DNA of 64,000 nt from Callorhinchus milii (lineage: Eukaryota): contig NW_024704758.1 in NCBI RefSeq assembly GCF_018977255.1, forward strand, positions 14,260,001 to 14,324,000, written 5' to 3'. The notes under the pieces are model-generated. The model was not told the DNA's origin and ran no database searches. It worked only from the letters and a program-made list of their open reading frames with translations. Below, piece by piece: positions 6,109 to 61,260 of the stretch (the stretch's first letter is position 1; each line of letters starts with the position of its first letter). The position numbers and the translations under genes are program-made.

Positions 6109-6330
<222 letters not shown>

Positions 6331-10506: not shown

Positions 10507-10719
<213 letters not shown>

Positions 10720-10971: not shown

Positions 10972-11103
<132 letters not shown>

Positions 11104-11652: not shown

Positions 11653-12185
11653 AACCGAACGGTTTTGAATGTTCCTTACAAGGCAGAACTGTGGATCGTT
11701 TCTCAAATTTCATTAGTCTCCAAACCAATTATTGCAGTTTTGTTACTTTCCTTATGTTTAGCGCAACAACAAAAACATGAAGGCAAATGTGCTCAAAAGG
11801 TTAAAAATTCTGTTCTTCCAATCTTTCATCTCAGTGGAAGAACGTCTCGGATTTGTCTCACTTTTCCCGACAACTTTTATTTCCCAACTTTTGGGATGCC
11901 CAAGCAAATATAAAACTGTTGGGCTGGGTCTTGTCACCAATTGAGTGGCATTCTCTCCCCCTCCCCCCACCAAACAAAATACTCTCAGTCAGTTTGTTTT
12001 TGGGGGGTGGGGGGGTGGGTGGAGGACAAAATTGTCATTTCTATTAAAACAGGCAATTGAAAAACAGCCCATAACTGGTTTCAAATGTCCTGCCTCGTCG
12101 ATTCAAAGAAAAAATCCTAAGAATATCATATCCTAACAAAGTTGCATGAATGTGTTGTCACCTTTTATGTGTAAACAAAAATTAA

Positions 12186-12335
<150 letters not shown>

Positions 12336-34967: not shown

Positions 34968-35185
34968 ATGGGGCTGAAAGCACTGAGGTCCTTTGGTATC
35001 ATCGTGAGACGTTCTGTCGGCACAGCCCAAACTTCAGATGGTGAGGATATCTTCAGGCAGCGAGGAATCTATTGCTACTTTTTGCCTATTCAGACCCGTT
35101 GGCAGGACAATGACGCATATGGCCATGTAAACAACGCAGTGTACCACGGGTACTTTGATACCTTAATCAACCACTATCTTCTCAG
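34968..35185 (+). CDS. them7: THEM7-like hotdog-fold acyl-CoA thioesterase, first coding exon
   Basis: ATG in strong Kozak context (ACAATGG). Likely acceptor at ttctgcAG|34941; an alternative in-frame ATG lies at 34899. Encodes [37 protein letters not shown] (4HBT/YbgC motif). Donor AG|GTAAGG, phase 2. Position between WT1 and RCN1 matches mouse Them7 and human THEM7P. Confidence 0.88.
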
Positions 35186-38100
35186 GTAAGGGAACCCTAC
35201 TGTTTCTGCTCCTCACATGTATCTCCAGCTAATGACGCCAGAGCCGGGGTTTAACGTGGCAAAAAAAANTACAGGCTTTATTGCTATCGGTGGCGTAGAA
35301 GGGTTAAAATCCTTTGAACAGTTTATCTCTTATCGGTTGTAATTAAATGTGTTTATAATAAATTATTTGGTGTAATTAATGTAAAGTCCTCTTGCCTGTA
35401 CCGTTATTAAAACCAGATGCTGAAGGATCAACAATATTACAACATGGCAATGCAGCCTTGCCAGCTGTCTAACTGTAATTACTTTAATCTCAGCTTGTTA
35501 TCTAATTATCACCTTTGTAAAGGGAATACTACCCTCTAATGCATGCTGATTGTTTCTGATCATGATGAAGAGTTTAGAACAGCTGTCAGATAGCTGTGGC
35601 CTAGGTGTTTGCATCAGAAATGGTTGAAGTCTAAGTCGGGCCTAACTTCCTTCACACAGGTTCACTAAGCCCGTTTCCAACATCTGTCTTGCCTTCAAAC
35701 GGGGAAACTTAACACTGTCTCTGCTGTTGAGGCATGTGGCTCCGAGTGTTCTTACTCTGAATGGAGCTCATTTGTACTGTGGGGTTCGTTGCAGAAAGAG
35801 AGGGAGATATGTTGGTAAACAACAGCAAGCAATTCAGACATTTTTATAACTCGGCCCAAATGAGAAACAGTTGCTGTCCAGCACAGTGAAAAGCCATCAG
35901 CAAACCAAACAAAACGCAGGAATCAATCAACTGGGAATAAATGTATTTTGCTACGTTGGTGCAAATGATGTTGAATCTGATTTGTTGGGAGTCTTTGAAT
36001 AAAAGCACATTTTGCACACTTTGAATTCAATGCTACTGTACCAGAAAAGATTTATTGGCTTTTTTTTAAAATAAAGAATTCAACATTATTTTGATCTTTG
36101 CCTTAAGACACAAATGATCATAACATTGGAAATGAACGGAACTCTTTGGGAAGCTGAGTAACAGTTGCGAAAAATTACACAGTATTTGTTTTGTTTAATA
36201 CATATATATATATAGAATTCTATAAAACTGACAGAATGAGAGAGAAGTTGCCATATTAGGCTGAAGTGTAGGTTAGGTTTTGGTCCTGTTATTCCCAGCG
36301 TCTCTCTGTTTCCTACAGCCACCAGTGTCAGTTCAATGAGATACTTGCCTAGTTAAAGTGATCTCTGGTTGGACAAAAATTGTTTGAAAGCATTCTGACT
36401 TGTAAAGGATTTCCTCACGTAGAATGTGTAGGAAACGTAAAATGACCCATTGATTTTGCAGTGGAAAGTGGTCCTATGTTGGGTCTGGCCCTGGTTCCAT
36501 TCCATTTCTCTAGTGGCTTCACTTACTCGTTTGCTTAATTCATTAGCTCCGAGCTCATCTCAATGTACATGAAGCTGAGTCGGAGGCTTTTTTTTTTGCA
36601 TAATGAGACATTTATAACTCATTTGTTAAATTTATTGCGCCTTCTACCTATTTCAAATCAAATTTATTGACCACAAAAGTGAAACAGAATGGGATTTCTA
36701 TGCTATTATTTTCCTAAACATCAGGGATGAATGCACATCAGTCTTAATTACTGTAGAGAATTTTTCCTCCTGGGTTGTTGGCTCAATAAATACTTTAATA
36801 ATGTTCATGGGGTTGCACAGTTTCCAGGAATGATGCTGTTTCTCCGAGTGTATTTCATTATGATTACCGTAAGCAAGGTTAGGCTATTTCACGCTCGCTT
36901 TAGAGATTGGAGCGTCACAGGAGAGAGGATCGAGAAGAGAGAGGACTGAATAGAGATGTAGCTGTTCTCCTAATTTAATAAAAATAATGCAAGGGAATTC
37001 AACTTGTCAATTTACACAGAGTGTGAAAATCAAGTCCAAAGGTCACGGGTCTTTTAGGATGTGCTTTCCTTTCGGGATCTCATTTAATTCAGATCACAAT
37101 CAACAGACTCATTGTTCCACTGAAATTAAAGGGGGATTATGATGAGCAGCCATTTAGACAGTCTACTTCATCCAATCATCTCACTTTCCTCAGCACACAC
37201 AATGCATTTTAGCAATCTTGATTAACAACAACAACAACAATTAGCATTTATATATTGTCCCTCACGGGGGGGGGGGGGTGCGGGTAGTGCCCCAGAGCGC
37301 TTGACAGTGGCAGAGCACAACGCCGAGCCAGGGGGAGGGGGAGGTGATCATAGGCACGTTCGAAGAGGAAGGAGGAAGGTCTTCAGGCGCGAACTAAAGA
37401 TGGGGAAGAAAGGGTGCACGGCGGAGGAGCAAAATAAATGGTCTTACAGGCTAAAACTAGGTGGAACTTCAGGCCTCTGGAACCTGTGTGGTCTGAATGG
37501 TTGAATCGGATGAATTGAGTGAGTTGGGGGAGTAAATTGCAAAGTGTGTGCGTGTGCATGTGTGCAGTGGGGAAACTCATTGATTTGTTATGTCACTTGC
37601 GTGATAAGAACACATTTCCAAGTGTCTGCCCTCCACTTCCTGGTAGCAGCCATCAGACGCTTTGGGAGAGATTGGGAATGATGGCACCAGATGATGATGA
37701 TGTCAGGAAGGTACCGGGCATGGACTGTGATATAATTAGAAATGCCACGGAAGAGCTTTCTCAAACTGACAAAACAGAAGGGAAGTTTTTATTAAAGCAA
37801 CAAGATATCTGCCTGAGTTATCATAAACCAAGCAGAAGGTGAAACGAACTGAGGACCTTTGACAGCTGCCCACCCCTCTCCCTCCCCATCCCTCCCTCCT
37901 CTTCCTTTGTCTTGGCTATTTCTCCTCCCGCACCTAGCCATGTCCACCCTTCTGTTCTGAACTCCTGGCTGCACAGGGTTGGTGCTGTCCCTCTTCCTGC
38001 CCACCTGGCACCAGATGTGCTAACAGCAACTCCTGCAGATCCCTCGTCCTCGGAGTGGCAGGATGCGAAATCCCAGGCGACGTTCACCTGGAACCACTTT

Positions 38101-40319
38101 GCCTACAACAGCTGGACCCCCTTGATTGCCTTGTGCATCTCGGCAGCTCAGTGCTGCTGCCGTATCAATCGCTTGTCAATTTGGCTTAGCCGTGCCTTTG
38201 ACTGACTGGGGCTGGGGAAGTGGGGGAGGGGGTGGGGCGGAATGGTTAAAATTAATTGCTACATAAGGAAAAATTGAGAGATAATTATTCCTGGTTTCCT
38301 GTCGGTGCTTGAGGGTAGATGACCTCATTAACTTGTAGCTTGTACACAATTCAATTACTAGGAGATGGAAAATACATTTTTAATTACCTCGGTGGCCTGG
38401 GTTCCCATTCATCTCCATTTGCACGGAGGCTTTTTTTTTCTGCGCTTGTGCTGAGAGATGGGGACGGCGGTCGTGATTTTTTTTTTTTGGAGGGGGGGGG
38501 GTGGGTGGAGAAAAAACACACAAAATTAACCCACCAAAGCGCATGATTTCGGCTCTCAGCTGAGCTCACACGTGTTGCTTTCAAATCAATGTTTATCAAC
38601 ATTGAATTTCTTTGTGCCAGGCTTTGTCAAAAAAAACGTAATGCTTTAACCCTCCCCTCCATGCACACACACACACACACACAAAAAAAAAGTATGTGTA
38701 GTTGTGTGCACCTGTGTTTGTAGGGAGATGTACTGAATGTTGTACATTGCTATCAGACTGAACACTCACAGGTAGATAGATGCCTGTCATACAACAACAA
38801 AATTACATTTATATTATTATTATTTATAGAGCACCTTTACTACAGTTCAATGTTGATTGATAACATCAAGGAGTTTAGCTTTTAATTACTGTGAAGACAT
38901 TTGTTAGAATCCATGAACTAAAAGAACAGTTCAGTTTTTATTCGCTACTGGCTTTCAATCATGATCCTCTTCCCTCTTTCTTTCTTATTCCCCCCTCCAC
39001 CCCCACTGCCCTCTCCAGTCCCCTTTCCCACGTTAGCCCCATATAGCTCTGCTGTAAGCCACAGTCAGGAGGGTGGGAAAGCTCGCAGACATCTCCCTTG
39101 ACTGTGTCGATGTTTCTCCTTGTTTGACCCACTGTGAAACATCCTTAAGCGATGCAGGAAGAGACATGACCCAGCTGAGGCAGGCAGGCAATCTTGTCTT
39201 GTCCTGGGGGCAGAGGAGAGTGAGTGGCAAGTCCCCGTGGTATCAGAACATCAAATGAGCACTTTTGCTTTCAAAACCATTTGTGTATTGGGGTCACTGG
39301 AGTAGCTGTTGAGGTGCTTGGTTAACCTTGCGTTTGGGGGAATGGGAGTGAGCAGAGGTTTGTGTCCGAGGGCTGACTGCTGCCCCAGGCGAGCCTGACC
39401 AATACGTCGTTCTTGGTCAGACAACACTTCAACACGACGCCAAAAAAGACCTTTTAAGTCAAGAGTAAAAATGAACCCAGCTGTCATCCTTGCCTGTGGC
39501 CAATGGGTAGCTTGTCAGTGCATCAGATAGCAACACAGGAAAGTGACTGGCACTGTCCGTCTCCACCTTGATGGATGAGGGAGCGGGGTGGGAAACAAAA
39601 TCAGAATTAAAGTTAGCGTGTATGTGCTGATTAAAGAGCTCGTTCCCCGGTCGGCAGCCAACAGCTGGAACATCTGCATTGCCACTTCCATGATATCACG
39701 GTAAGTGGCAGAGCAGGGCTTTTTTTCAATATAACTGATTTCAGTGTAATGCATTCTGTCGAGTTCTGTTGTTTGACCAACCTTGACGTAATGGTTTGTC
39801 AAATGCTGCGATTTTGTAAAGGATATGTCTCCACTTCCCTCCCCCTCTCCCCACTGTTCCGCCTCCCCCTCAAAGTTTGGATTAGTGCAGATCTGTCCAG
39901 AGCAGGGTCTCCGATGGAACCAGGTTTTTCCAGTGAAACATGGTTTGCTTTCTTCTCCAAGGGATATTTTTAGACGTGGTACTTATTACATTAAAGGTGA
40001 AGGCTTAAATGGACCCACTGGGATTTGTCTTCTAACTTTCGAGCCCCGCGTCCAGTCCTTAACCAACTCAGCCGCCCAGGATTCCCCTGAGATTTGACAC
40101 GTGATAACGTGCCTGAATAATCTGTTAATAATCATGAGACCCTAAATTCCATCTAGTTTTAACCTGCGTGACCATTTTGCCTTAAAACGTTTTGTTTCAA
40201 GGACACGCAAAATTTGCTGGGACTTCTTCAGATCAGCCTTAAGTTTGAAAGCCGTTTTCTTTCCGCACTTCTTAAAAATTTCAAATTTAAGTTTGAATTC
40301 GAGAATCTCCCACAATTTT

Positions 40320-40528
40320 GCTTGACCTTAAAAGTAGTCTCAAGACCCTTCTCTTCGACCGTGCCTTTGGTCTCCCTCCCACCTCTCTGCCTTCCCTCAC
40401 CCCTACACCACCCCTCCCCCACCCCTCCCACATGCTCGGGCCCCGACACCTGACTGTTCAGCGCTTTGGGACGTCCTCCCGATGCGAAAGGCGCTCTATA
40501 AATGTCATTTTGTTGTTGTTGTTGTTGT
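40320..40528 (+). mobile_element. L2 LINE 3' end
   Basis: LKSSLKTLLFDRAF ORF2 end, CAGCGCTTTGGGACGTCC...GGCGCTCTATAAAT and a (TGT)n tail. Confidence 0.85.
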
Positions 40529-40544
40529 AGTCTTAATAGTGATA

Positions 40545-41260
40545 ATCACTATTGCATTTGATATATAGTCCTTTCTCGAAAAGCTTCACAGAATTTATTG
40601 TGAAGTGCAGTGACTGTGTATTTTATAGGTGTATATCAATTTGCACCCATAACAACAACAACAACAACAAGATTCCATTTATAGAGCGCCTTTCACGTCA
40701 GGAGGACGTCCCAAGGCGCTGCACAGTTGGGTCATGACCCGAGCAGGGGGAAATGGTCAGGGTGAGGGGAAGGAAGGGAGGAGCGAGGAGGAGGAAGAGA
40801 GTCGAGAGGGAGCTGAAGGCTCGGTCAAAGAGAAAGGTTGTGAGACCGGCCTTGAAGGAGGAAAGGGAGGAAGCAAGGCGAAGGCACTGGGGATGGAGTT
40901 CCAGAGCCTGGGGCTGAGGGGCTGAAGGCCCGACCACCGATGGTAGGGCGGTTGGGGCGGGGACGTGGAGCAGACCGGAGCCAGAGGAACGGAGGGTACG
41001 GGCAGGTAGGTAGGGGGATAGTAGGTTGGAGAGGTAGGAGGGAGCAAGGCCGTGAATGGCCTTGTAGGTGAGGATGAGGATCTTGAAATCAAGTCAATCA
41101 ATAAGTCTCCCACAAACAGCCAATTTTTTATCTGGGGGATTATTGGCCAGACACTGGGAGAGAAAAACTCCCTTGTCTTATTGAGTAGTAACTTGACGTC
41201 TTCACCGTCCACTTGAATAAGCAGGGGCGGTACTATGGTTTAAACGCCTTATCTGAAGGA
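40545..41260 (-). mobile_element. DeuSINE split by the L2 (parts about 40545-40650 and 41100-41260)
   Basis: Tail and GTGACTGTGTATTTT on the left; the element resumes as TCCCACAAACAGCC...GGCCAGACACTGGGAG on the right. Confidence 0.7.
40651..41092 (-). mobile_element. 5'-truncated L2 LINE inserted into a DeuSINE
   Basis: Minus strand reads DFKILILTYKAIHGLAPSYLSNLLSPYLPARTLRSSGSGLLHV...LRLASSLSSFKAGLTTFLFDRAFS (frameshifted), the L2 ORF2 C-terminus, with a (TTG)n tail. Confidence 0.9.
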
Positions 41261-42432
41261 AGCTAAAACAGGGTGAGATTTTATGCCTCTTATTATTTCT
41301 ACCAGCCGGTCTCTTTTTTCTTATTAAAAAAAAGTATTTTTGTTGGCCAAACCTGCTGGGAACACCGTTAGCTATTAACCTCATTTGTTTTATTTAAATA
41401 AAAATGTTATGGTCCTAGGTGTACTGTCATGAGCGGGTGAGTTCTATGCATGGTGTGGCTCTCACACACATATCGTCCAGCGAGCTGTGATGTGTGCTGA
41501 GCCAGGTGAACTCACCTGGGGCAATGACGTGATCCCTACAAATGGTCTTATCATTCCTTACAATAAAATCCAGTTTGCTGTCTGGTGACTCCTGCTAAAA
41601 AGTGCAAGCGAGTGGACATCAGGTGAGGATGGAGTTCGGGCTCAGGTGCAATAGCCCCCAAGGTCCATAAGCCTCCTGAAGCTCCCTCGCTGTCCTGTCT
41701 CGCACATGCTGAGGTGGAAGGGGGAAGGTGGTATCAGTATCTCTTCTGTTAACAGGAAACTTGTGCTAATGGCGATATGGCCTCTCCACAGACACCAGCT
41801 ATTGCCTGTCCCTGGCAGCAAGAATTCCAATTGGAATCTGCTATTTGGAAGACTTCCAGCCAATCTGTATTTCTTATACAGAGGTTCCACTATTAGTAAT
41901 TTGTGGATTGAATGTGCAGCTTAAATAATGACACTGTAATACTGTAACCCTTTCATTTTATATAACGCTCATATTGTAGAAACATCTCCACAAGCTTTAC
42001 TGTAATTATTGTTGAGTGTGGTGTCTGTGTATTTGCAGGTGAACAAAGCAGCCAATTTGCACACAGTAAAATTCCACATAACAGGCAGGAGGTGAAAGAC
42101 CAATTCATTTGTTTTTGGAGGATTGTAGCAGATCAATAAATGCGGCACGTTATTAATACCTGTATATCGATCCCATGTGTATTTAAATATCATACAACAA
42201 GTTAATCTCAAACAACAAAAGGACTTGAATATAAATTGAACTGTCTACCAGTTCAGGTGGACATTACAGATCCAATGGCACTATTTTGAAAAGAGACAGG
42301 AAGCCCCAGATTAAAATTGTTTGTTCACTTCGGTGCTATTTTGTGGGATATTGCTGTGCGCAATTTGACTACCTTGTTCGCCTACGAATAAACAGTGTCT
42401 ACCCTTTACAATAAAATCCTTTGAGGTGCTAG

Positions 42433-42846
42433 TGTGGGAATGTAAAAGGACTAAAACACGTAAAGTACAGAGTGTCTCGACAATGATAAGATTAGAGTTG
42501 TTTTTGAGTAACTGCTGTAGATAATTAGAGTAGAACCAGTGTCCTTGTACTGTCTGCAAATGTATAATCAATCTTGTGATGATTGAATGCTTGTCAATCA
42601 ACAGCAAGAATTGTTTGAGACATGAGTTAAGCATGAGGTGATTGCAAATAATCATGTATATAAACTAATGGGACTGCCCCATTGGTAGAGGGAGAGTACC
42701 GACTCTTCTGAGAGACGTGCTATTGTATTGCCTCTCGCTTTCCCTCTTCTTGCTGTAAGTATTTGAATAAACTATATTTCTGAGCTAACTTTGTTTGTGA
42801 GTGTTCGTTTAATCCTAGCTATAGCGACTACATCCTGGGTTCGACA
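42433..42846 (+). mobile_element. Solo LTR (414 bp) inserted in a SINE
   Basis: TGT...ACA termini, TATATAAA at 42657, AATAAA at 42766, degenerate 5-bp TSD GCTAG/GTTGG. The flanks rejoin into one SINE (about 42325-42432 plus 42847-42908). Confidence 0.75.
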
Positions 42847-43349
42847 GTTGGAGGCATTCATTGACATGTTCAGGCGATTTATCAAAATGCAAGGATTATT
42901 ATTATTATACATGATTTTTTGTGGACTAGAGTTGATCCTATTCCGTTATTTCACATAAAGCTTGAGTACATGTTGAACCAAAACTTGCCTTTAATATAAA
43001 AAGTGCTACCTGTAATAAAAGTTTCCTTGCTCATCACCTATTCTCCCAAGCACTCTTAGACAGTTTTGGGAGTATAAAGAGCTGCCTCCCTATTAATTTA
43101 TTTATTCTTCTGAATGTGATTTTGGTGTAACTTCCACTTTCTGAAGTACATTTTCGATTCCTTTTCTGAAGCGATATTTTTCGCTGTGGGAAATTGATTC
43201 TTTGATCCAGTTGACAGAATTCAGCTATTTTCCAGAAATCCATATGAAGTTAAATTTGAAGACGATTGGTGTAGGGTTAAAGGTGTGAAAAATTCTGGGT
43301 CACTGGAGGAGTAACGTTATGTGTTTATTGCATTTTTTTTCTTGTTATC

Positions 43350-43565
43350 TGGATATGGGGGTGAATCGGATTAGAACATAACAGCACGAGATATGTTTCA
43401 AACTTTCAAACACAGATTAGATAGTTTTCTTTTAGGAAACAACATTATGGGATATAGTACATTGGTAGCTCGGGACATATGTGCATGTGACTGCCAGGAA
43501 GGTGGAGGGTGAACTAGATGGACGTTGGTCTTTTTTCGTCTAACATTTCTTATGTTCTTATGTTC
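43350..43565 (+). mobile_element. CR1 LINE 3' end
   Basis: GAACTAGATGGACGTTGGTCTTTTTTCGTC followed by (TTCTTATG)n tail. Related fragment at about 23190-23270. Confidence 0.6.
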
Positions 43566-44084
43566 AGATACAATATATGAACTCCATGCCAAGGGAAGGA
43601 GTCAGCATGCCATCTGGATAACAGCATCCTTCATATACATTTACAAGGATTATTAGTGTTTTTTACGCTGCACATTTAGAGTGGTCATTGGAGACTTGGT
43701 GTTTGAAAAGATGACAAAGCACATCAAAGTCAACAAGACTCGTCAGCAAAGGAACTTGGAAAAAAAATACACAAGGGTATTTTCCACCAGGGTAGGGTTG
43801 TAAGGGCATTATTTTTCACGTATTTTTCCACTAGGGTTGGTGGGCGTGGGGGAGAGAAGGAGAGAAAGATATCCAACCTTCTCCATCAATTTTCCATTCT
43901 GAGGAGAAATAAGTTATCAAATCAGAGTTTGCTTTAATTATTGGGGAAAAAAAGGCAACTTAATTCCTTGGTAGTAAAGGTCTGGATCTGTGTAATAAAT
44001 AGTTTGTTTTACATACAGTTGATTTGCTGTTTGTCACTGCATTCGGCCTCACTTACTATGTACATGTAGAGTAATAGCTATAAA

Positions 44085-44200
44085 GGAGTGAGCTACAGAG
44101 GTACGGGGAAAGGAAACGTAAATGGGACTGAAGGGATTGCTCTTAGAAAGAACCAGCACACACGCAATGGGCTGAATGGCCTCATTCTGTGCTGTACATG
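44085..44200 (+). mobile_element. CR1 LINE 3' end
   Basis: ATGGGCTGAATGGCCTCATTCTGTGCTGTA. Related copies at about 9270-9375 and 46100-46165 (-). Confidence 0.7.
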
Positions 44201-46984
44201 CTGTGTGTGCGTGTGTGTGTGTCTGAGTACATTACTTCAGTGAAAATATTTATTAAATGAACATTGATCTGTGGTAAGTGTGTTTGTAAAGTTTACAAAT
44301 TCCATGGAATGGAGAGAAGTTGTTTAATAATAATAATAAAAATAATATTGCTTGCAATTGTTACAGCGCCTTTCATGTCTGGAGGATATCCCAAAGGACA
44401 TACTGTAAAGTGCAGTGACTGCATGTTTTGTGGGCGAAAGTCAGGTGTTTAAGACTAGTTTGTTATTAATTTCACTTCTGAGTAATGTACAGGGAATGAA
44501 TAGCCAGTGATAAATTTAATACACAGAGTAATTGTGTGAAGCCCTGTTACTATGAATTTTGAGCTACAGTGTATACACCCAAATTCACACAACATCCAGT
44601 ATTACACAATGCAATTATTTGGCCTAAGAGGATTAATAGTTTTATTTTGGGTTCTGAACAGTTGTCTGATTTAAAGTATTATCAGTTAATCCACGTCATG
44701 TGAAAATCTCCTTTGCTACTAAATATTCTGGTACAATTAAATTAAACCGAATCTCAAAGTTTAATTTCATAGTTATAAAAATGCATTAAATTATTTTGCT
44801 GTAATACCACAATACTTGAGGTAATCATGTTTTGTGCACATGCATTTTAATTTCCCCAGTGACATGAAAATAAATTTTACTAACATGTTAATTTTGTGTG
44901 TTAATCAGTCGCTCCAGGCTGGATGAAAGGATTTGCTCTGTAAAACTGTTTGATATTGAAACAGGTCCTTTTGACCCTATCAAAATTGCCTTTATTCCCC
45001 TAAAGACGGGTAAAGTTAATTAAGCACTCAATAGGTTTATAGTGTTTAAATTAAAATATATTACCCTCATTGTGTAGTCATCAAATTAAAGTATTCTCCT
45101 CCTGGCTGCATGACTGTCTAATGTGCTTATCAAAATTCATGATGCTATAAGTGGGATTTGTTGTGTTGAACAGGGTCTGTAATGAGTCAGTCAAACAATA
45201 GTTGATGCTGGGATCTGCCACAAGATGGTGACAAATTCCATTGATTACAACTTGAATCTCTCAGACGAGGACGATTTGTCCCTCGTCCTCTCCTCTTGGC
45301 TGGTTGTCAGACTCCGCCATTGTGAAGCTCTCCGGGACACTACCCCGCATGAAGGGCGCTGTATAAATGCAAGGTGGTGGTGTTGTGATAAGGCACTAGC
45401 ATCAAGTGCAAGGATTATTGTTATTCGTGCCCTTTCACATTCTCAAGAGTAAATTCAGAAGTTCAGAGTATGGAAGTTACCGTCACAAATCTTATCTCAA
45501 AAGTTATGTTGTCCTCTCCCCCTCCTTCTTTCGAGATGAAGCTTTGGACTAGGTAGTGTCATCAGTTAAGAAGATTCAGGCCATGATGCCATTCAACAAT
45601 AAGAGTCCATTGAGGGGAATGAATTGAGTCTTTGTTGGTTTTTATTGAGGCCTGACCATAGTCAGTACAAAGCTGTGTGTGTCTTTCTGTCTATCGTTGT
45701 CTGTAGTTTCAAAGAACTGAAGCATCAAGTAAATAACTCTTGCTAATGTAAAGTAGTCACCCTATTTCCCAGTGCCCGGCAATCTCAAAGATAGTCTATA
45801 TAAAATAACACTGGGGCGTCTGCAGATCTGGTGAAAACTGAAATGCATCAGCCCAGGAGGTTGGGCAATTCTTGTACTGAGTGAGCAAATTAGAGAATAA
45901 TAACAGAGACCAAGAGAGATACTGAAGGGAAATATTTCTTTCAAGGGAGACTTTCTCACTCTGTGAGAGTGAAAAAANGAACAGAAAACTTGTATTATGT
46001 GAACTACTGTCTGTATTTCTTAGCGAGAGGATTGCGCTGCCTATGTAGTGTAGTGAATCTTTCGATACAAGCTTATAATGAAATATTGCATTGGATCAGA
46101 ACCATAGACATTCGTAGGACCACAGAAATTTACAACACAAAGGAAGGCCATTTGGCCCATTGCTTCAAAGGTTTGCTGTGGTCAGTGAACGGAGAAGAGG
46201 CATTGAGAGGTGGATGTGCTACTTCTTCATGCATAGCTTATGTCTGTGACTTGAAAGTGTGTGTGTAATGTACATTGTACTTAAAAAGAAGGCCACATTG
46301 CTCAAGGCATGACACTAACTTGGTCAACACCTTGAAAGATGTTAACACTGTACTCTTATCATTTGTTGCACAACATGATTTCAGGCTTATTTCGGGTATT
46401 GCCAGATTTGCCAGCAAAAAGACTCATTTCTAATCGAAGACTAAAAAATGACGACTCCGTTCTACATATTATACTGAAACATGACTTGCTTTTATGCACA
46501 CCGGGCTTACTTTTGTTTCAATCAGATATTTTGGGATGCACACCGCTTGAAACAACTTCGCGCAAAGTTCTCCCTCTGAGCAGCTTTTAAAATAAAACTG
46601 CAATCCTCGGATGTTCCAACGTTACAGCAAAAACAACTGTTTTTTTTTCATTCAGTCACTACCGAGTGACATCTGCCCCGGGGCTCACTGTCGTCTTCAA
46701 TCATGTAAATGGCATTATTTACTTTAAATCTGCTTTTGCCTTTTTTTCAGTCAGATACCAATAGCTCGGAACGAAAGAGTGTTGCTCGTTCCAGAGCCGA
46801 AAGACTTTGTAGCAAGTAAAATCTTGCTTTGTAACACTCGACTATGCGTGACAAGCAAAACAGTGTGCAGGGGAGCGGCGGACGAGCTGGATCTGCAACT
46901 TTGAAAGTAACAGAGTTCCAAACAGCCACAAACTGCATCTAAAATGGGGGCGGAGGGAGTTCAGTTCAGTTCTAGGTTTTCATT

Positions 46985-47330
46985 AATAATAATAATAATC
47001 CTCGCATTTGATATAGCGCTTTTCACGTCGGGAGGACGTCCCAAAGCGCTTCACAGAACACACTGTAAAGTGAATTGACTGTATATTTGTGGGCGAACGC
47101 GGCAGCCAATTGCGCACAGCAATGTCCCACAAACAGTCGTGGATTGAAAATGACCAATATATATTGTTTTTGGTTTTCGACGGATTATTATTCATTCTCT
47201 CTCATACATATATATTTCGCCCGCAAAATATACAGTCCATTCACTTTGCAGTATATTTCCGGGAAGCGCTTTTAATTGTCTCAACAACATAAGGTGCTGT
47301 ATCAATTGCAAAGATTATTGTTATTATATT
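46985..47330. mobile_element. Head-to-head inverted SINE pair (about 46985-47150 minus, 47215-47330 plus)
   Basis: Both copies match the window's SINE consensus in opposite orientations. Confidence 0.8.
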
Positions 47331-49881
47331 GGACCCGTAACAAGCCAAAACGGAAGCAGCATTATGGAAAGGGAGTGTTTTCTGTGAGTTCATTATTATT
47401 GAAGGAAAGCATTGATAAACTGCTTCTATCAGGGCATTACAGGGGGAGAGGGCACTAAATGGATTGCAAGTTGTGCCACATAAACTAGAAGATAAATACT
47501 GAAGCTTTAATTACCAGTCGGGGCGGTTTTGGTGGCATTCCACATTCTGTTTCAGTCGGCCTTATTGTGAAGTGCATTAGGACATGTAAAGTGTACCTGT
47601 TCCTGTTATCACAGGGACAAATGTTGGATTGCGCTGTGTTTTTAGTCAGTAATTGACAGAGCATCATAGCCAATTGTGTGTCCTGATTTTCCCAGGGGAT
47701 CGGAACATGTAGGCATAATTTCTTCCAGACACAAGTGCCACTGTAAGGACTCCTGATGTAATTTGCTGATATGATATTAAAAAATAGCATTAAAGTAATT
47801 AGATTGAGCACGGAGTCATATTTCACTGAGAGGAGCTCGTCCGTGGCTTGCGCTTACGATAACCTGGTCACTTTTAACGGCTCGGAGAAAGCAGGCTAGC
47901 ATAATAGGTTAATGTATTATATGTTCAGTTCATGTCATTAGGTAGAGCTTTTGCTGAGGCTGCCAGATTGACGCTGCGAATAAGAGGACGGGAGGCATTG
48001 GGCGTTAACCCATCACATTCTAAGTACCTTCAGCACAACGTCTGCAGGTTAGGGTTTAATGTTGAGGTGGGTGGGCAGCGGGAAAGAAGCTATCTCCATA
48101 AAAACAATAATAATAATAATCCTTGCATTTTGATATAGCTCCTTATAACGTCTTCTAGACGTCTCGAAGCGCTTCAGAGACTATCCTCTACAGTGAATTG
48201 ACTGTATATTTTATGAGCGAAATACCAGCAATAACTGTTAAAGTCCACCTGGTCAGTGACATTTTCCCAAAATACAAAAGGCAATAAATGAAACTGCAGG
48301 AGGTGAATGGACAGAGGGATCTCAATGGTCTTTTCCAGTCTTGGGATCGCATCCCCTGTGCCATCCCTTTGGGGGTAATTTATAGCTCCCTCTTCTTCCC
48401 TCCCCCCTCCCCCCCCACACACACACACCGACACTGATCCTGGAAACTTCTCTTTATCTGAAATTTTTGATGTAACGCCCTGTCATGATGTTGAGACGTC
48501 TCAAAACGCTTCACAGAATATACTATAAGTGAATCGATTGTTGTTAAATCACTCAAACTAGAAAAAAATACCAACTTCAATAAATCCTGACGTTGTCTTG
48601 CGAGCAGTTTGGCTGTGCTTTCTCGCTGTGAATATGATCCGATTTGATGGCAAAGCTCTGAGCGTGTTTATTCCAAAAGAATTAATACACAAGAACTGAA
48701 ACTCATGCAGATAATATGGCTTTGATGTGCTGCGTTTTATTTTCAGAGATGGTCGTGCTCTGTTGACCTCCGTGCCTCTGACCAAGCCTGCATTGGCCAC
48801 AATATTCATCTGATAACGACAAAGTTCCAGTGGCTCTCGTTACATCAAAACTGGGCAAGAATTCATTTGCAAATGATTTAATTCCATCATAAAACTGCAC
48901 AGTAAAACTGCCTCTCATGTCAGCCGTTACAGTCCTTTCTTATAATGCGAGTGTATCTCACTGGAAAGGCCAAGGTTGGTTTCAGCGTGCAATCAGATTT
49001 TGGCAGTCACATGCCTATTATTGCTAAATAGCCTGAATGTGGACGGGCAATTACATTCACTTAGTCTCAGTGCTTCAATTTGAACTACATCATAACCTGT
49101 GACAATGCTTTTTTTTAAAAAAAAACTGAAAACGAGCATAAGACCACATATATCATCGTTCACATCTCAGTGAAAGTATTTATGCCATTGCCCACTGTTA
49201 CTGTGCTGATGTTCATGCCCCCCAGTGCCATGTTCTGTCATTCAATTATACTATGATGCAGTTTCCCAAAGGGGGTTCTGACTAATAATCCTTCTCAGTT
49301 GTACCGCATGACTTGTTGTATTATTCTGCCCTCAAGAAATGAGAATCTCCAGTGTTGCTTGTTTGCCTGACTGGCAACGTGGTTTTATTTAATGGTCGAA
49401 ACGTTAGGTTTGGAAATGAATGTGTCCAGTGAGGAGCCGTGACAAGGCATCACACCGCTCAGTGTATTTGGGTCCACTGCAAAGTGCCAATCTAATTACG
49501 TGAGGAAATTCTAGATTTAACCGTGCAACCCTCAGCAAACTGTGCTAATAGATTTCGGGACATTGGGGACAAAAATTGGCACCTACAGAATGCACAGTTG
49601 CTACACTTTACGCTATATCCTGTTTTTTGAGACATCTTCCCGACATGTAAGGTGCTTTATCAGATGCAAAGATTATTTAATTGTGTTTCCCTTATTTTTA
49701 AACCTTGACGTTCTCACTGATTTTGCAATCTGCATTCGGCTGTCGGTTTTCTACGGCTTCACCAGCCGTCCGTGAACTAAATCTCGTCTGGCACACCGAT
49801 AACACATGTGAAGGGAATAGTAAATGCAAGTTGTTGTTGGTGAACGTGGCTTACGTGTTACACTTTTCTTTGGGGGTCTAG

Positions 49882-50278
49882 GTACTGTGAATTAAACATC
49901 AACAGCCTGAATTCTTCAATGATCGGATACATAGTGGCTAATCAGTGTTCGTTCTACAGACCAGTGGGGTATCCACAGATCCCACTTGCGGGGATGGCTA
50001 TTGAAAGCATAGGATGCTCCAGTGTGACCTACAGACAGGCTCTGTTCAATCCTCTACCAAGCAGAAGAGCGTTGCCGTTGGATTACGATGTGCTATGCGA
50101 TGGCTGTTTCCCCAGCAGTCCGCTGCTGTCTGGCTTCGAATCCACAGCTTCTACGACCGGGAAGTCCACCCACGTCTTTGTGGACACGGCTACCAAGAGA
50201 CCGACAGAAATACCCACGGTTTTCAGGAAGTGCCTCGAGAAGATCCTGATTCAACCACGGACTATCCATTCGGGTTAG
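49882..50278 (+). CDS. them7: THEM7-like thioesterase, last coding exon
   Basis: tctAG acceptor at 49880-49881, phase matches exon 1. Translates (R)YCELNINSLNSSMIGYIVANQCSFYRPVGYPQIPLAGMAIESIGCSSVTYRQALF...THVFVDTATKRPTEIP...HSG*. Joined CDS is 218+397=615 bp, 204 aa. Confidence 0.88.
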
Positions 50279-51212
50279 AAAACCTGTTCTTGTTCCAACG
50301 TTTTAAGGGGGACCCGGGGAGTGTTCTCACTCCTTAATGGGAATTAATATTTGTGATTTTTTTTGTGACTTAATTGAAATCTGGATAACAATAGATGTTT
50401 TTTAAAAATAATAACATTCAGTGAATCTATAGAACTCCTGCTCAAAGGAGAATATTCTCCGACAAATAATGCTTCAAAATGTAGTCGCTTTTCACAGTTA
50501 AGGGTGCTTTCCAATTACTAAGGATGTAGGTACATGACTGAGAATTGCTTGTGACCAGTGATTGACTAGATCGTAATAGGAATGTTTATGCTAAATAGCG
50601 TCAATTCAATATATTAGTGCAAATTGCTCTCAGATTAAACTCCTCCACCTTTCTTGACACTTATGATCTCGCTGCACAGATTGGGATGTGCGTGGTGGTC
50701 CAGATCATCTAATTCTCTGCTTGAGGAAAGTGGCAGTCTGTGAAATGGTAAAAACATGAGAGTAATGGCCTTACACTGCCCATCCCTCCTCCCCACCCAA
50801 ATAAACTGCACCATAATTGTCGAACCTTTCTACAGGTCTGATTTCTGCCTTTAAATATCCTTTGGGGATTTTTATTAATGCTGCTTTTTAACTTTTTTTA
50901 TCTTCAGGTAAATGGCAACTGGGTGATGTGTGAGTACAGTGAAAATTGAAAATGAATTATGAATGGGTCTCGAGTTGATATAGAGAGTCTGAGTCGGTTG
51001 CTCCTGTTTGCTGATGAATTCTAAGTCGTGAGGATGTTTTTTAGAATCAAATTATATTGCAGTGACTTGCATATTTCAGATTTGCATAGTAGCACAGACA
51101 ATGCTGGGATAAGACACTTCCCTTGGTTTAATTATACACATGTCAAAAATACACTATTTCAAAGTTATGATTATATATAAAAAATTATACATTAACCTAA
51201 TTAACCGCTTCT

Positions 51213-52637: not shown

Positions 52638-52745
52638 TCATAACTCGTCGTGGTCCCGTGTGAGATCCTCACCGTAGTTGGTGGCCTGGCTGCCCACAAA
52701 CATGTTCCAGTTATCTAAGATTTCTTGTTTTGATAACTTCTGGTC
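52638..52745 (-). CDS. rcn1: RCN1 last exon (exon 6), ER-retention HDEL
   Basis: 108 bp. [35 protein letters not shown]. Confidence 0.97.
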
Positions 52746-53556
52746 CTGTTTTGAAACAAAAAATTTTTTTAAAAAAAATTAAACACAAAAGGAATTTCAC
52801 TTTGCCAAATCTCCGCCCTGCGTCTCAAGGGTTTAGCTTTAATTCACGCTCCTAAGCCAGTGACACAAACTTTTTCCTGACAATCCAACACTGTTACTTA
52901 GAATAGAAGTACACCAGCCCTTGAGTGCTTAATGAGTTTTGATCGAGTGCAATGCTGGTCAACCCATATCAAGAAGTGGCCTGCCAAACATTTGCACTAG
53001 TCTCGGTAAGTCTGTGTGTATTAAATCAATATTTTGTTTCCAGCAGCTACTGTGTAGCAATATTTATGGCATGACTATCAATCAAGAAACATTCAATCAA
53101 GAAAATTCTTATTGGGTTACCCCACCAAAAAGATTGGTCACCATTGATTTTGTGTGTGCAAAACCCTTAGCTGCGCATCCAGCGCCTTGGGATGTCCTTC
53201 CGACGTGAAGGCGCAATATAAATGTAATTTGTTATTGCGTAGCTGAGCTGTTAGGGTGAAGAGGTTCTGGGTTTGCTGCCTGGTTTGTAGTGAGGTAGGC
53301 AATCTCCTTGTACGACAGAGATCTTGGGTGCATGGAGCATGGGTGAAGGAACCCGGGTGTCGGACTCACTGGTGTGATACGTTTGCGAATCCAGTTGTGC
53401 TTAAGCTATTTTATAATTTGGGGGTTGCTGTAGTCGGCAACTGTAAACAGCTGGAGCTTTGCTCACACGGTTTAATCACCAGTCTGGCACATCCAGTTAT
53501 CCTTCTACTCTCATGTAGCTCAACATGATGTCCCTGCTCATATTTAAAGGCATCAC

Positions 53557-53756
53557 CTTATCTTTGTCCGACTCGTACACCAGGTGTCTGGCTTCAGCCT
53601 GTGCGTGGTCGTAATCTTGCGGGAGGATCCAATGCCGGATTTCAGCTTTATCCATCTTCCCGTCCTTATTTAAGTCTCGAAAATCGGAAAACTGCTCACG
53701 TTCAGTCTGAACCCAGTCAGGTTCTGCCACACCTTCCACGTGGGCGAACATATCAG
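53557..53756 (-). CDS. rcn1: RCN1 exon 5 (EF-hands)
   Basis: 200 bp with AG/GT ends. (A)[66 protein letters not shown]. Confidence 0.97.
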
Positions 53757-55192
53757 CTGGAACAAAGAAAAAAAAGTATTGATCGTAAACTTCCATTCAA
53801 TATTAATAACCCTTGCATTTTATACAGCATCTTATCACGTCTTTTAGATGTCTCAAAGCGATTCACAGGCTATACTGTAAAGTGGAGTGATTGCGTCTTT
53901 TGTGGGTGAAACGCAGAAGCCAATTGCACACATCGGTGCCCCACAAACAGTCGTGAATGTTAACACAACATGAACAAACTATTGTGTGGTTAAGGTCTGG
54001 TCACCTGAATGCACTAGACTTCATGGTTGAGCTTTATTTTGCCTTTTCTTTGCTTTCCTCTCCTGAAATGCGCTGATTCTTTCTGGGATACAATTCAGTG
54101 GGCAACAGCTGTCTCACATATGTAGTCATATGTGAGCCCAGGCAGTGACTGTTGACAGGTTATTTGATCATGGGGAATAGCTTGATACAATATTCACTTG
54201 ACAGTCACACGCATGCACACACATTTTCCATCAGGAAGCACTGGATAGCGATCGGAAGTGGGATCCCTTCCTGATATTTTCCTTACCTCATCCAAGGGCC
54301 CAACACATGGAAATTTCCCTGTGTCTGGAATAGAATGCGCACTCTCTCCTGGTTTACTTAATTCTGGAGAGTAATAGTATTAGACGCAGTTTGGCCAGAG
54401 CCAAGTACGGGGAATCTAAGTCAAGGAGACCATGCACCTACATAGAACTCACTTGTGCTCCGCATAGTGGTAATACTAGTTTATTGAGTAATTCTTAACC
54501 TGTACATAACAGAATTATTCCACCTCCTTCTGCGGGAGCTTTTTTTTAAACCAAGACGTACCTTGATTTTTTTTAACTTGTTTGGTTAAAAGTCCAACAG
54601 CTTCAACGACAAATTACTTAAGCTGAGGCTTTGAATCGAGCAGGTTCAATTTGCTGCTGTATGCTTAATACATTCTGTAAATGCGCTTTGTGTGGAAGCA
54701 GTTATACAAAGGAACAAGTCACCACTGTTCACATATCAGCACATGTCGACAAGTACTTGGTAATTACAGGTAGGTAATGTCATTGAATGGGATTTAATTA
54801 CTGTGAAATTGTACTTGCCCATTGTGTTAGTCATACATAGAGAGCATTTAAGAACTTGGGTCTATTTAGTCAGGCCATTTAAATTGTGCATAAAGCTCTA
54901 CAATTAAGGGGAGAATTGCTGTAAGTGCTCATTGTTATTGAGAGATGCTCTTAGTCAACTACGAGGTGGAATTGCTAAACTATGTGTAATTCAATGATTC
55001 TTTGGCTCTATCTAGATTTTATACATACAACTGCAAAGATACCTATTGAGCATAACAGCAAATGGGTTGGGGGGGGTGGGGGGGTTCCTAATGTCACAAC
55101 CAGAACTGTAATTGGACGTGATCTCGTGCTTCTGCAGTCACCGCAAACGTGAGCAGAAAGTCAAAACTCCGGCCTGGAAGTGGCTGACTTTT

Positions 55193-55245
55193 GGGTCATC
55201 AGGTCATTGTCACAGGGAGAGATGTCAATGGTGACCTGATGACCT
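55193..55245. promoter_or_regulatory. Inverted pair of DR2 nuclear-receptor elements
   Basis: GGGTCAtcAGGTCA (+, 55193-55206) and AGGTCAtcAGGTCA (-, 55232-55245). Confidence 0.45.
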
Positions 55246-55609
55246 GCAACTCAAGCATTTTGACTTCTCTGTACGGGCTAAGTGCAAAAAGAGCCGGTGA
55301 GGGCATTTCAGAATTTTGGGGGGGTGGGGGGGGGAGTAAAAGTCAGGGCCAAGGTTGACTCGTTTAGCTGGGCTTTGTGTTCATGCAAGTCCACAGGATA
55401 CCTGAGCTATGAGTGAAAACACCTTGTAATGAAGCGCTTTATATTGGAGGTTGTAGTCTGCTCAAGCGCTCCCCTTATACATGAGTAGGCAGAGGGTAAT
55501 GTACATTATGCAGGAGAACCCTAATATAGTGACCTCTGGGTGTAGGATATACTGTAAAGTGGATTGACTGTGTAGATAATTACTTGTTATCCAGGGCCGT
55601 TACAAGTTA

Positions 55610-55735
55610 CAGGGCTATGGGGAGAGCGCAGGGAAATGGGATTGATCTGGAAAAGCACTTTTCAAAGAGCTAGCACAGACGCGATGGGCTGAATGTCCTC
55701 CTTCTGTGCTGCATACTTCTACAATTCTATGATTT
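55610..55735 (+). mobile_element. CR1 LINE 3' end in RCN1 intron 4
   Basis: GGGCTATGGGGAGAGCGCAGG...GATGGGCTGAATGTCCTCCTTCTGTGCTG and (ATTCTA)n-like tail. Confidence 0.8.
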
Positions 55736-56569
55736 TGTGGGCAAGATGTGCAGGAAGCCATACTTAAGTTCACTGTATGAAGCTTTGACCAACTCTCCAG
55801 CCTTACACAACTTCCCACTGGTGTGATTCTTCAAATGCTAACACAATATTTGTTTTAATGGCTGCACGAGAGCAATTTTTCTTTTCTTATTGCTCTCTCG
55901 AAATGTTCCTTGGTCAGAAAGGGCAGGGCAGCAGCTGTGAACACTCCCTAAATTTACAGTAACTCCCCCCCCACCCCCCCCTAACCTCCCACGGAGAAAA
56001 GCCGAGACTGACAAAAGTGTGCCCTGCAGGAGTAACCCGAGTGTCATCAAACCCAGAGTCTGAACCCTGGGGCTTTGCTAGGAAGGAATCCCAACACCCA
56101 GCAAGGCAGCTCCGAGCAGCTTGAGAGATAACCCATCAAAAAGACTCACTCGATTCTTTTTTAAAAAAAAGACACAGATGGTCAAGTTACAAATAAGGTG
56201 ATAAAGAAATAAAATCCTTCTCTCCAGATTGACATTGCGCCAAAAAACAATCCAAGAGCCAATCTTATTGCACAAAGCTTCGGCTCAAAGGAAAGGCAGT
56301 TTCAAACATTGGAGGGTTGAAAAGCTTCCCCCCTTCTTGAAAAACAGGCACAGCAAGTTGCACTGGCTAGAAAACAGCCTGTAATTTAACAAGATTTCTT
56401 GTAAAACAAAACGGTCTTCCAGCAATATTTCCCCCATTACTGCAGAAGCCATCGCATCTGTGCTTGTAAGCCTTAAATGGCTTTGCGAAAGAATATCATC
56501 TGATTTCAAGTGAAGCTCTCAGGTGGTATGAATAGGTCAAAGCGAGTGATTAAAATCAGTGTTCCTTAC

Positions 56570-56630
56570 CAATGTACTCATCCTCATCAATGAATCCGTT
56601 TCCATCCTTATCAATGTCTTCCAGCGTTTC
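56570..56630 (-). CDS. rcn1: RCN1 exon 4 (EF-hand)
   Basis: 61 bp, not in the ORF track. ETLEDIDKDGNGFIDEDEYI, canonical AG and GTAAGG. Confidence 0.96.
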
Positions 56631-58797
56631 CTAGGAGGGGGAGGAAAGAAGTTAGATGAGCTATGTTGCAGTTCTGATCCTATTCTTGAAGCTTCTTCAT
56701 TTCAGTTAGTTACAGATTAGATTGTTCAGAACATGCTGCCTGCTTTTTTTTCATGACGATTCTTCAAAGCTCTTCCTACCCTGCAATTAGAACGCATTCT
56801 CCCAGTGTTTGCTAGCTGTCTGGGTGCCCAGTGGGCTGAGAGCGCTGGTTATCAGCATTGATTGAGGATTTGAGGAGGGATTTTCATACAGGCAAAGGTC
56901 ACTCAAGCAACGACGTAACTAATCACGACTGTCGGCTGGCTGTACTTTACCCACAATAATCCGATAACCTCTTCAAATAAGAATGCAACCACTAGCTCGC
57001 GAACAAGCAAATGTATTTGTGTGCTTCGCAGAGTGTTGATACAGAGCAACAGCATGATAAAGCGGTGGTTCTGGGTCTATTCGCTCTCAGACCCCTGAGT
57101 TGAAACAAAGGTCGAAAAATGGCTGATTTCTCGATCATCAGGATCACTGCTGATGCCACTTCCTGCATACTGTACATGTGCAGGAAAGGCCGCTGATGTC
57201 ACTACCATTAGCAAGCGTGCCCAGTGCACAGGAAATAACATCAGTGGTGAAGGGTGCTATACAAATGCAAGTTGTTGTTGGTGGTGATTTCAGCAGGACT
57301 TTCTGGCTTATTCCTCCCATCACCCACCACTACTGGAGTCGTTGTCTGATTCCACTCAACCACGTGCTTCTGAGCTGGTGAACTGGGCTTTTTTTACCGA
57401 AAATGAGATGGGCGTAAAATTCCACATTAATTGGAATTCCCATCATTTCATACCTGGTCACACCCCACAGTTCATCTTACACACAAAGAGACGCGATGGT
57501 CCGTTTCCAATGCAGTTTAAAACAACCCGCCATGTCATATGACCTGACCTATAAAAACTAGCACAGCACTGAACTTTAAAGGGAGTTTGTATTGCTTTCG
57601 CTTGATTTTAAATATCAAGTATTTAACTCTTTGACTGCTAGTAAGTCCAGAGAAACTCCAGTCTCCCTGTGCCAACCAGCTCAAGCACTGTGACACTGAA
57701 AACTTACAGTAACAGTGCAGTATTAAACAAAACTCTGTAAACCTCAGGAATAGGTTCATCACTACAATAGCAACTTGTCCCTTTCCTTCTCGGACAAGGG
57801 GTTGTCTTCTTTTACCCCTTGGAGCTAAGCTTGGCTCCTGGGTGATGTATTTGGCAACAGAATGTCCGAATTGAGCCAGCCGTCTGTGGCTGTCTCGGTA
57901 GTCTGGTTCCTGAGCCAGGCGGATCCGCAGTACTCCAAGGCACTGCCGATAACAAACCAGCCGGCTTGTTATCTCACAGCAGTGATTCTTCCCACTCAGC
58001 TCCTGCTAACCCTGCAAGTCAAAGACCTAACGGGTAGGGCGGTCGGTCCTTGTGGACAAGCAGCGGGAAGCATCCCTGACAATGCTCTCGATGGTAAGCT
58101 GTGTGGTCTTAGCTGGTTAAATTCCAGCAGTTACCCCAACAGACGATCTGGGGTCCACAAGGCTTGTCAACCTGCACCTAATACAGTCCAAAATTAGGTA
58201 AACAGGGTGCATCCCCCCAGTGAGCATTTAATTCCAGACTTAGGGTAATTGCTATGTGTGGAGATGTGCATATGAGAAACACTCATTTTAAGCAAGGTGA
58301 TGGGTTTCTTTATGTGTCCACTATTCCAGTACACTGAGACACTACGTACAGTGTTTTTATGCAATGGTTTTTCACAAAGGTTATCAAACGTACAGCAAAA
58401 TAATACAGCTTGACAGATTGCAGTAAATAAAATAAAGTTCCATCTGATGGTAAATAAGGACGGTGTTTGATGAGATCTGATGTGTACAGACATCTGCTAA
58501 AGGTTAGTGGAACAGGAGCTTACTCAGGCAAGCAATGCTACACATACGGTTTGTGTAGAATGAAAGGCAATGAGCAAAGGTTACCATTCAGTGATGCCTT
58601 TTTAAGGGAGAGAGACTGACTTACAAGCAGTCTTGTAAGACTGCTTAAGCCAGAGGCACTGAAGTATTCAGAGGATGTGGGGAGGGTGAAGGGAGAGATC
58701 AAGGTGCAGAGATGACAGCAAGTTCAGGATGTTTAATTGCTGTCATTTGCCAGGCGAGGCCAACATTCAAATTGCGGTATGGCTGAGGTTTACTTAC

Positions 58798-58976
58798 AAG
58801 GACGACAATTTCCTTCATGTGCTCAAACTCCTCAGGGTGAAGGAAGGCAGTGAACTCTTCCCTGGTGGCCACCAGATCACCATCGATATCCGCCGATTTG
58901 AATCTGCGTTCGTCTCGGTGCAGCATCTTCTTAAAGCTGAGCTGATCAGCGATGTCCTGGAACTCTTCAGGGTTTT
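58798..58976 (-). CDS. rcn1: RCN1 exon 3
   Basis: 179 bp. (E)[59 protein letters not shown], donor GTAAGT. Confidence 0.97.
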
Positions 58977-61066: not shown

Positions 61067-61260
61067 CCAAGTAATATCCGTAGGTCGCTTGCTTGTATTC
61101 GTCCCAGGCTATTTTATTGTCCTTGTTGAGGTCGTAATCCCTCCACACTTTTGCGACGTTTTCATAAATATAACGTTTCTGCACCCGTTTAATCCAGGCT
61201 TTGAGTTCCTCGGTGGTAACAAACTGATCCTTGTTGTCATCTATCCGGTCTACGATTTTT
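61067..61260 (-). CDS. rcn1: RCN1 exon 2 (exon 1 lies beyond the window end)
   Basis: 194 bp. KIVDRIDDNKDQFVTTEELKAWIKRVQKRYIYENVAKVWRDYDLNKDNKIAWDEYKQATYGYYL, two EF-hands, donor GTAAGG. Confidence 0.97.

Follow-up and report, generated by a model that had tools for sequence, protein, structure and literature searches.

An intact Them7 orthologue in the elephant shark: a PA5185/YbaW-like hotdog protein with a predicted mitochondrial address

The Them7 gene of the elephant shark

A 64,000-nucleotide stretch of the elephant-shark (Callorhinchus milii) genome (contig NW_024704758.1, positions 14,260,001 to 14,324,000; the window, in whose coordinates positions are given) carries an intact orthologue of Them7, a gene of the hotdog thioesterase family, between WT1 and an RCN1-type gene, much as the initial annotation of the sequence had proposed. 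The gene, its family and its loss in humans are already on record, and RefSeq annotates the elephant-shark protein as uncharacterised. The features of the gene, followed by its two neighbours, are given below (pLDDT, predicted local distance difference test).

34968..35185, plus strand: coding exon 1 (aa 1 to 72 and 2 nt of the codon for Arg73); from sequence, RefSeq identity and genome search
34968..35033, plus strand: predicted mitochondrial presequence, about aa 1 to 22 (net charge +4, no acidic residue, amphipathic, low pLDDT); by composition rule only
35097..35144, plus strand: active-site motif [16 protein letters not shown]; from sequence and alignment
35112..35114, plus strand: likely catalytic Asp49, the second Asp of the motif; role inferred from YbaW/YbgC (passages of PMC2698920)
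35186..49881, plus strand: phase-2 GT-AG intron of 14.7 kb, at the mammalian isoform break site
49882..50278, plus strand: coding exon 2 (aa 73 to 204 and stop)
50051..50143, plus strand: animal-type insert, about aa 130 to 160, with two short predicted helices; not in PA5185 or most bacteria
50171..50182, plus strand: HVFV strand, conserved family-wide
50634..50805, plus strand: candidate polyadenylation signals (ATTAAA at 50634, AATAAA at 50800); from sequence only
5692..12329, plus strand: upstream neighbour, WT1 3' exons (WT1 domain and zinc fingers)
52638..61253, minus strand: downstream neighbour, RCN1-type gene (EF-hand exon 61083-61253; HDEL-stop exon, stop at 52638)

The start ATG at 34968 opens an exon that ends at 35185 in the donor CAG/GTAAGG, and exon 2 begins at 49882 behind a T-rich tract and TAG and runs to a TAG stop codon ending at 50278. 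Joined, 34968-35185 and 49882-50278 give 615 nt in frame, encoding 204 aa. This in-phase junction is the one first proposed, and it was the sole GT/AG pair in the ranges scanned round both exon ends; the catalytic Asp motif (35097-35144, in exon 1) and the C-terminal HVFV stretch (50171-50182, in exon 2) were likewise located. The product is identical, letter for letter, to the RefSeq entry 'uncharacterized protein LOC103175045 [Callorhinchus milii]'. A search of the elephant-shark genome matched these two exons only, indicating a single copy, and returned no paralogue at E<=0.001.

The gene model is confirmed as intact and predicted to be spliced, on indirect support from the RefSeq model and the orthologues. 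No RNA data set is on record as containing exon 1; word shares of 0.39 to 0.64 in eight runs guessed to be RNA, and of 0.97 in four runs of unknown kind, were not used as evidence. Rfam gave 0 matches within the 64-kb window. An acceptor-like ttctgcAG at 34939-34940, 27 nt 5' of the ATG (within 34899-34967), suggests an upstream noncoding exon, and an in-frame ATG just 5' of 34968 would be intronic if that acceptor were used.

Protein family, fold and vertebrate orthologues

Two Pfam models, 4HBT_2 (PF13279; 41.4 bits against a cut-off of 25.5) and 4HBT (PF03061; 29.0 against 20.6), matched the protein above threshold. The NCBIfam YbgC/FadM model TIGR00051 scored 29.7 bits, far under its curated cut-off of 68.7, and PA5185-like bacterial genes likewise fall below it (34 to 56 bits). 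The protein is a single-hotdog member of the 4HBT clan that is PA5185/YbaW-like and is not counted here as a TIGR00051 member; the 4HBT/YbgC/FadM assignment made at first stands for the fold and the Pfam families but not for YbgC/FadM.

The closest PDB chain by sequence is Pseudomonas aeruginosa PA5185 (2AV9, 2O5U, 2O6B and 2O6T; E=1.7e-26), which shares the RWxDNDxYGHVNN motif and the HVFV strand, but lacks the N-terminal extension of the elephant-shark protein and its insert of about 30 residues. Foldseek agreed, with PA5185 occupying all top matches (E 1e-15, template modelling score by target ∼0.92, 34% identity). None of the 10 PDB chains matched by sequence at E<=1, and none of the Foldseek rows to rank 49, is mammalian; within these lists ACOT7, ACOT13, THEM4/5 and THEM6, which have the same hotdog fold and hydrolyse thioesters, gave no match. 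Escherichia coli FadM (YbaW, thioesterase III) and YbgC share the fold and the D-x-D-x-x-G-H/V loop; YbgC is distant in sequence (E=0.2), and FadM serves as a functional model in the works-like sense only. The earlier suggestion that the sequence lies closer to microbial RWxDNDxYGHVNN enzymes than to the ACOT and THEM proteins is borne out by PA5185, except that the bacterial-looking Ala of the motif is a change specific to the elephant shark.

The AlphaFold2 model (34-row alignment; mean pLDDT 85.6, with a low-confidence N-terminus) shows a long helix (residues 56-74) wrapped by an antiparallel sheet (37-40, 86-97, 108-116, 120-128 and 164-174), which together with the Foldseek matches identifies a hotdog, and two extra short helices (141-146 and 153-157). 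The substrate pocket may owe part of its shape to the animal insert. D47, D49, H53, N55 and N56 are invariant in all 34 aligned proteins, and the D-x-D loop aligns without gaps to 2AV9 and 2FUJ. Passages of PMC2698920 place 2AV9 in the subfamily of YbaW, where the catalytic Asp is conserved, and describe the tetramer of YbaW-type families as type TA. By analogy with D18 of YbgC and from the gap-free alignments, with an inferred offset in numbering, D49 appears to be the catalytic Asp. A homodimer prediction score of 0.29, against a mark of 0.32, was not used either way.

Among vertebrates, the protein is 57 to 64% identical to homologues in other cartilaginous fish and in basal ray-finned fish (bowfin and paddlefish) over 94 to 97% of its length, and ∼50% identical to those of mammals, including mouse and rat Them7, over 84 to 96%. 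The vertebrate proteins form one clade (support 100/98 in a 44-row IQ-TREE analysis), in which the elephant-shark protein stands with a rat cluster in which one record bears the name 'Thioesterase superfamily member 7'. In six mammalian isoform models a break or insertion follows directly after NHYLIR/S, the elephant-shark junction, and several Logan contigs of ∼1 to 2 kb hold the rodent ORF (open reading frame) unbroken, as expected of spliced transcripts. Of 51 vertebrate proteins, 50 keep the ORF and the catalytic motif, and 49 of the 51 have Gln at residue 50 (DNDQY), where the elephant shark has Ala (DNDAY). Mouse and rat Them7 also share the type of N-terminal extension and the WT1/RCN1 neighbourhood; apart from residue 50, they differ in the intron, which spans 80 kb in mouse. 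Human THEM7P is a pseudogene, unlike the intact elephant-shark copy.

The mouse cDNA 0610012H03Rik is presumably Them7, in agreement with its adjacency to RCN1, WT1 and PAX6 and with the position of THEM7P on chr11. That adjacency is given in passages of PMC1964772, which also place the ultraconserved element uc329 within the mouse intron. The elephant-shark gene holds the corresponding position between WT1 and the RCN1-type gene, the latter named from its EF-hand and HDEL features and from published synteny (PMC3554528) rather than by direct comparison; the passages of that source report that the elephant-shark region keeps the mammalian gene order, and these make no mention of a thioesterase. 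Clade, single copy, synteny and shared intron site identify the gene as an intact Them7 orthologue.

Descent within eukaryotes

The gene had at first been read as a possible endosymbiotic or horizontal acquisition kept since early jawed vertebrates. A vertebrate age is not supported by BLAST, in which the nearest kin beyond vertebrates (189 to 271 bits) are named invertebrates (124 to 160 bits) and fungi (117 to 132 bits); the best bacterium scored 122 bits. Named animal relatives include Branchiostoma, the tunicate Clavelina, the hemichordate Glandiceps, two copepods and echinoderms (sea stars, a brittle star, sea cucumbers, crinoids and urchins), and those of other eukaryotes include Mucoromycota, chytrids, a basidiomycete, the stramenopile Hondaea, and Diphylleia. 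Neighbouring clusters in the ESM Atlas, taken as a lead only, are mostly of Chordata, Ascomycota and Streptophyta.

FastTree (295 rows and 143 columns, with unnamed proteins admitted only at 125 to 270 aa and with both motifs) recovered a 104-row eukaryote clade with support 99. IQ-TREE recovered it with support 99/94 from 64 rows, including one long-branch Hellea row, and with support 97/98 from 44 rows that omit Hellea, Diphylleia and 18 further rows; in the latter tree a stramenopile, fungi, copepods, deuterostomes and vertebrates are nested in that order. A mixture model with 47 rows kept a 25-row eukaryote clade (Shimodaira-Hasegawa-like approximate likelihood ratio support 93) and moved Hellea out. 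In all four trees, which include the bacterial, fungal and invertebrate homologues called for in the initial annotation, the elephant-shark protein sits within the eukaryote clade and not among bacteria apart from other eukaryotes. Two Hellea homologues (L016:4001-4405 and L070:4001-4405) had joined this clade under FastTree and LG+G4 but left it under the mixture model, and we put their earlier placement down to an artefact of long branches or composition. Their branch is long and compositionally odd, and their gene neighbours encode an acyl-CoA (acyl-coenzyme A) dehydrogenase, a short-chain dehydrogenase/reductase (SDR), a ligase and MaoC.

The insert, scored as a motif spacing of at least 41 against a bacterial median of 26, is present in all 10 vertebrate rows and in all 35 measured rows of the other animals in the clade (37 in the group), compared with 7 of the 44 remaining rows of the eukaryote clade and 2 of the 169 rows measured outside it. 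At position 50, Gln is the most frequent residue in each of the three eukaryote groups, and 4 of 191 rows outside the clade have it. One eukaryote clade, the insert and Gln50 together point to a gene that is old in eukaryotes, likely inherited vertically from early members of the group and bacterial in family only.

Two results sit less well with vertical descent. The approximately unbiased (AU) test did not reject a grouping of vertebrates with bacteria (log likelihood 21.9 lower, p=0.188, 146 columns), and one eukaryote protein, P0351 of Diphylleia rotans, sits among bacteria in every tree that includes it, either as a separate acquisition or as a slow, misplaced member. P0351 carries a basic N-terminal extension and a C-terminal AKL despite its bacterial placement. 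Transfer into animals or vertebrates is disfavoured, although without formal rejection by the AU test. In all four trees the bacterial branches are unresolved and taxonomically mixed and point to no donor lineage, alphaproteobacterial (mitochondrial) or other; the gene may still have a bacterial origin in early eukaryotes, with the mitochondrion or by another early transfer.

Organelle signals, proposed function and alternatives

Targeting signals were scored in 102 full-length proteins of the eukaryote clade and 102 full-length outside rows (89 trimmed locus rows were left unscored), with consensus patterns for peroxisomal targeting signals of types 1 and 2 (PTS1 and PTS2) and our own composition rule for basic N-terminal extensions. 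The clade contained 29 proteins with a strict PTS1, 11 with PTS2 (mostly Mucoromycota) and 69 with a basic extension, and the outside rows contained 1, 0 and 10, respectively. Extension and PTS1 occur together in amphioxus, tunicate, sea star, brittle star and crinoid proteins. PTS1 was found in none of 51 vertebrate proteins and PTS2 in none of the 10 in the tree; the elephant-shark protein ends in HSG, which is not a peroxisomal signal. In all eight vertebrate proteins shown, the first 22 residues carry a net charge of +2 to +5 by a crude composition rule. Six Mucoromycota proteins (P0341, P0345, P0348, P0352, P0355 and P0358) have N-terminal PTS2-type nonapeptides in place of PTS1, and the type of peroxisomal signal appears to switch between lineages of the family.

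Mitochondria and peroxisomes are the two compartments of beta-oxidation, and the signals are likely those of a beta-oxidation-organelle enzyme that is mitochondrial in vertebrates. We infer that the ancestor served peroxisomes too and that vertebrates dropped PTS1. The basic N-terminal 22 residues are, with good probability, a cleavable presequence. Neither the pan-eukaryote history nor the organelle signals were found in the open-licence literature text searched, and the counts of signals appear to be new.

Several of the mammalian hotdog thioesterases ACOT7, ACOT13, THEM4/5 and THEM6 are mitochondrial. We consider it fairly probable that Them7 is a vertically inherited PA5185/YbaW-type hotdog protein, predicted to be imported into mitochondria, where it would hydrolyse acyl-CoA and free CoA. 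The following steps are proposed. (i) The elephant-shark protein would be imported into the mitochondrial matrix by way of its basic N-terminal presequence. (ii) It would form a hotdog oligomer, as in its family. (iii) Asp49 would very probably activate water against the acyl-CoA thioester, by analogy with YbaW/YbgC. (iv) Hydrolysis might clear acyl-CoAs that stall beta-oxidation, so that the CoA pool of the organelle is not trapped, a job like that of E. coli FadM; this substrate class is put forward tentatively. Passages of PMC9329746 describe FadM, the best-studied YbaW protein, as removing intermediates that stall the beta-oxidation cycle. Gene neighbourhoods of the bacterial homologues lend modest support to an acyl-CoA role by analogy: among 80 loci, the neighbours include Fe-alcohol dehydrogenase (19), acyl-CoA dehydrogenases (9), SDRs (7), acyl-CoA ligases (5), TesB (3) and MaoC (3).

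Several points weigh against this proposal. In the literature searched, neither PA5185 nor any member of the Them7 clade came with data on activity or localisation. The 80 bacterial loci include many from related Burkholderiales, and their commonest neighbours, phasin (20), nitroreductase (18) and deacetylase (14), are unrelated to acyl-CoA breakdown. The protein scores far under the YbgC/FadM cut-off, so the FadM substrate need not carry over. The cleavage pattern tried on the elephant-shark protein gave no match, and the presequence rule also scores the 10 outside rows. Finally, of 84 columns that are otherwise conserved in vertebrates, the elephant-shark copy deviates at 13, the maximum among 43 proteins. 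Most of these changes are conservative, and faster evolution of this copy was rejected, since only 1 of 16 relative-rate tests exceeded 3.84.

The main alternative concerns the substrate: Them7 could be a mitochondrial thioesterase for short-chain, branched, hydroxy or aromatic acyl-CoA, or for acyl-ACP (acyl carrier protein) of mitochondrial fatty-acid synthesis, in place of the long-chain dead ends of beta-oxidation; we regard this as a possible but unlikely outcome. Related enzymes allow for it, as YbgC acts on short-chain acyl-CoA (a passage of PMC2698920) and PA2801 has a range from acetyl- to palmitoyl-CoA (a passage of PMC7190597). The frequent Fe-alcohol dehydrogenase neighbour hints at hydroxy-acid metabolism, and a weak Acyl-ACP_TE_C match (18.7 bits) lies below its cut-off of 21. 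Because peroxisomes have no ACP-based synthesis, the peroxisomal signals of many relatives are more easily reconciled with CoA esters of beta-oxidation than with ACP.

A second alternative bears on the losses of the gene. That the human copy is the pseudogene THEM7P, as the initial annotation stated, agrees with Table S5 of PMC2864566, where the human locus stands among lost genes (chr11:32.09-32.31 Mb; mouse 0610012H03Rik) in an entry shared with Zhu et al. 2007. A THEM7P/WT1 table row in PMC8374389 gives chr11:32.3 Mb, and PMC12610818 mentions the gene in a table row. The 120 matches listed include tarsier, slow loris, lemur, colugo and tree shrew, and among them there is no named monkey, ape, teleost, bird, amphibian, marsupial, insect or nematode; some unnamed fragments resemble turtle or bowfin proteins. 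The loss, first placed in the human lineage, is probably wider, judged by absence from the listed matches, which suggests a loss in anthropoids (monkeys and apes) and others elsewhere. The Lemur catta protein (P0331) has 11 changes at conserved columns, several of them drastic, a Pteronotus bat protein (P0323) has W45C, and a Manis pentadactyla pangolin protein (P0322) has G166R. Such drastic changes suggest repeated decay in mammals.

The elephant-shark copy might be a weakly constrained bystander, dispensable or decaying as an enzyme, at a locus that persists because its long intron holds WT1 or PAX6 enhancers. The presence of uc329 in the 80-kb mouse intron (PMC1964772), the human loss and the changes in lemur and elephant shark would fit this account, to which we give little credence. 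The preservation of ORF and catalytic motif in vertebrates from sharks to mammals, the mostly conservative nature of the elephant-shark changes and the single significant rate test all oppose it, and it accounts for synteny and not for protein conservation; uc329 may be a reason why the locus stays put, not a reason why the protein is conserved. Least credible, and very improbable in our view, is horizontal transfer from a bacterium to an animal or vertebrate, which draws on the bacterial closest structure, the identity of the best bacterial match (37 to 40%), the AU test and the patchy named matches (the 120 listed include no teleost, bird, amphibian, insect or nematode), and is opposed by relatives in amphioxus, tunicate, hemichordate, echinoderms, copepods, fungi and a stramenopile, by a single eukaryote clade, in line with the species tree, under three tree settings (64, 44 and 47 rows), by the animal-wide insert and by Gln50, which vertebrates and other animals share with most of the remaining eukaryote rows.

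If Them7 is an acyl-CoA hydrolase of beta-oxidation organelles, a broader and more speculative idea, on balance improbable, is that it does for eukaryotes, as yet unrecognised, what the thioesterase-dependent escape route from beta-oxidation does for bacteria. It would have entered eukaryotes early, been sent in invertebrates to peroxisomes and mitochondria alike by a presequence combined with SKL, used PTS2 in Mucoromycota, become mitochondria-only in vertebrates, and been lost in monkeys and apes. Were this so, one particular class of stalled acyl-CoA would be disposed of differently in humans and mice, a metabolic loss like those of GULO and UOX. An acyl-CoA class that is hydrolysed in mice but not in humans, if there is one, would be relevant to mouse models of fatty-acid oxidation disorders and to the handling of drug and dietary acyl-CoAs. 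The literature searched, in open-licence text, contained no functional study of PA5185 and no substrate for it, and, for mouse or rat Them7 or THEM7P, mentions in passing only, so that an enzyme kept from fungi to most mammals and absent in humans is an orphan. Its targeting signals point to mitochondria, and ancestrally also to peroxisomes, as the likely address and make its job testable.

Elsewhere in the window, a C-rich low-complexity repeat of about 600 bp (CCCC/CCAG units; 19695-20306) lies between WT1 and Them7 and yields spurious poly-Pro and poly-Gly frames. The WT1 zinc-finger 3 exon (11023-11100) ends in HTGKTS at the intron, and the KTS alternative donor of WT1 appears to be kept.

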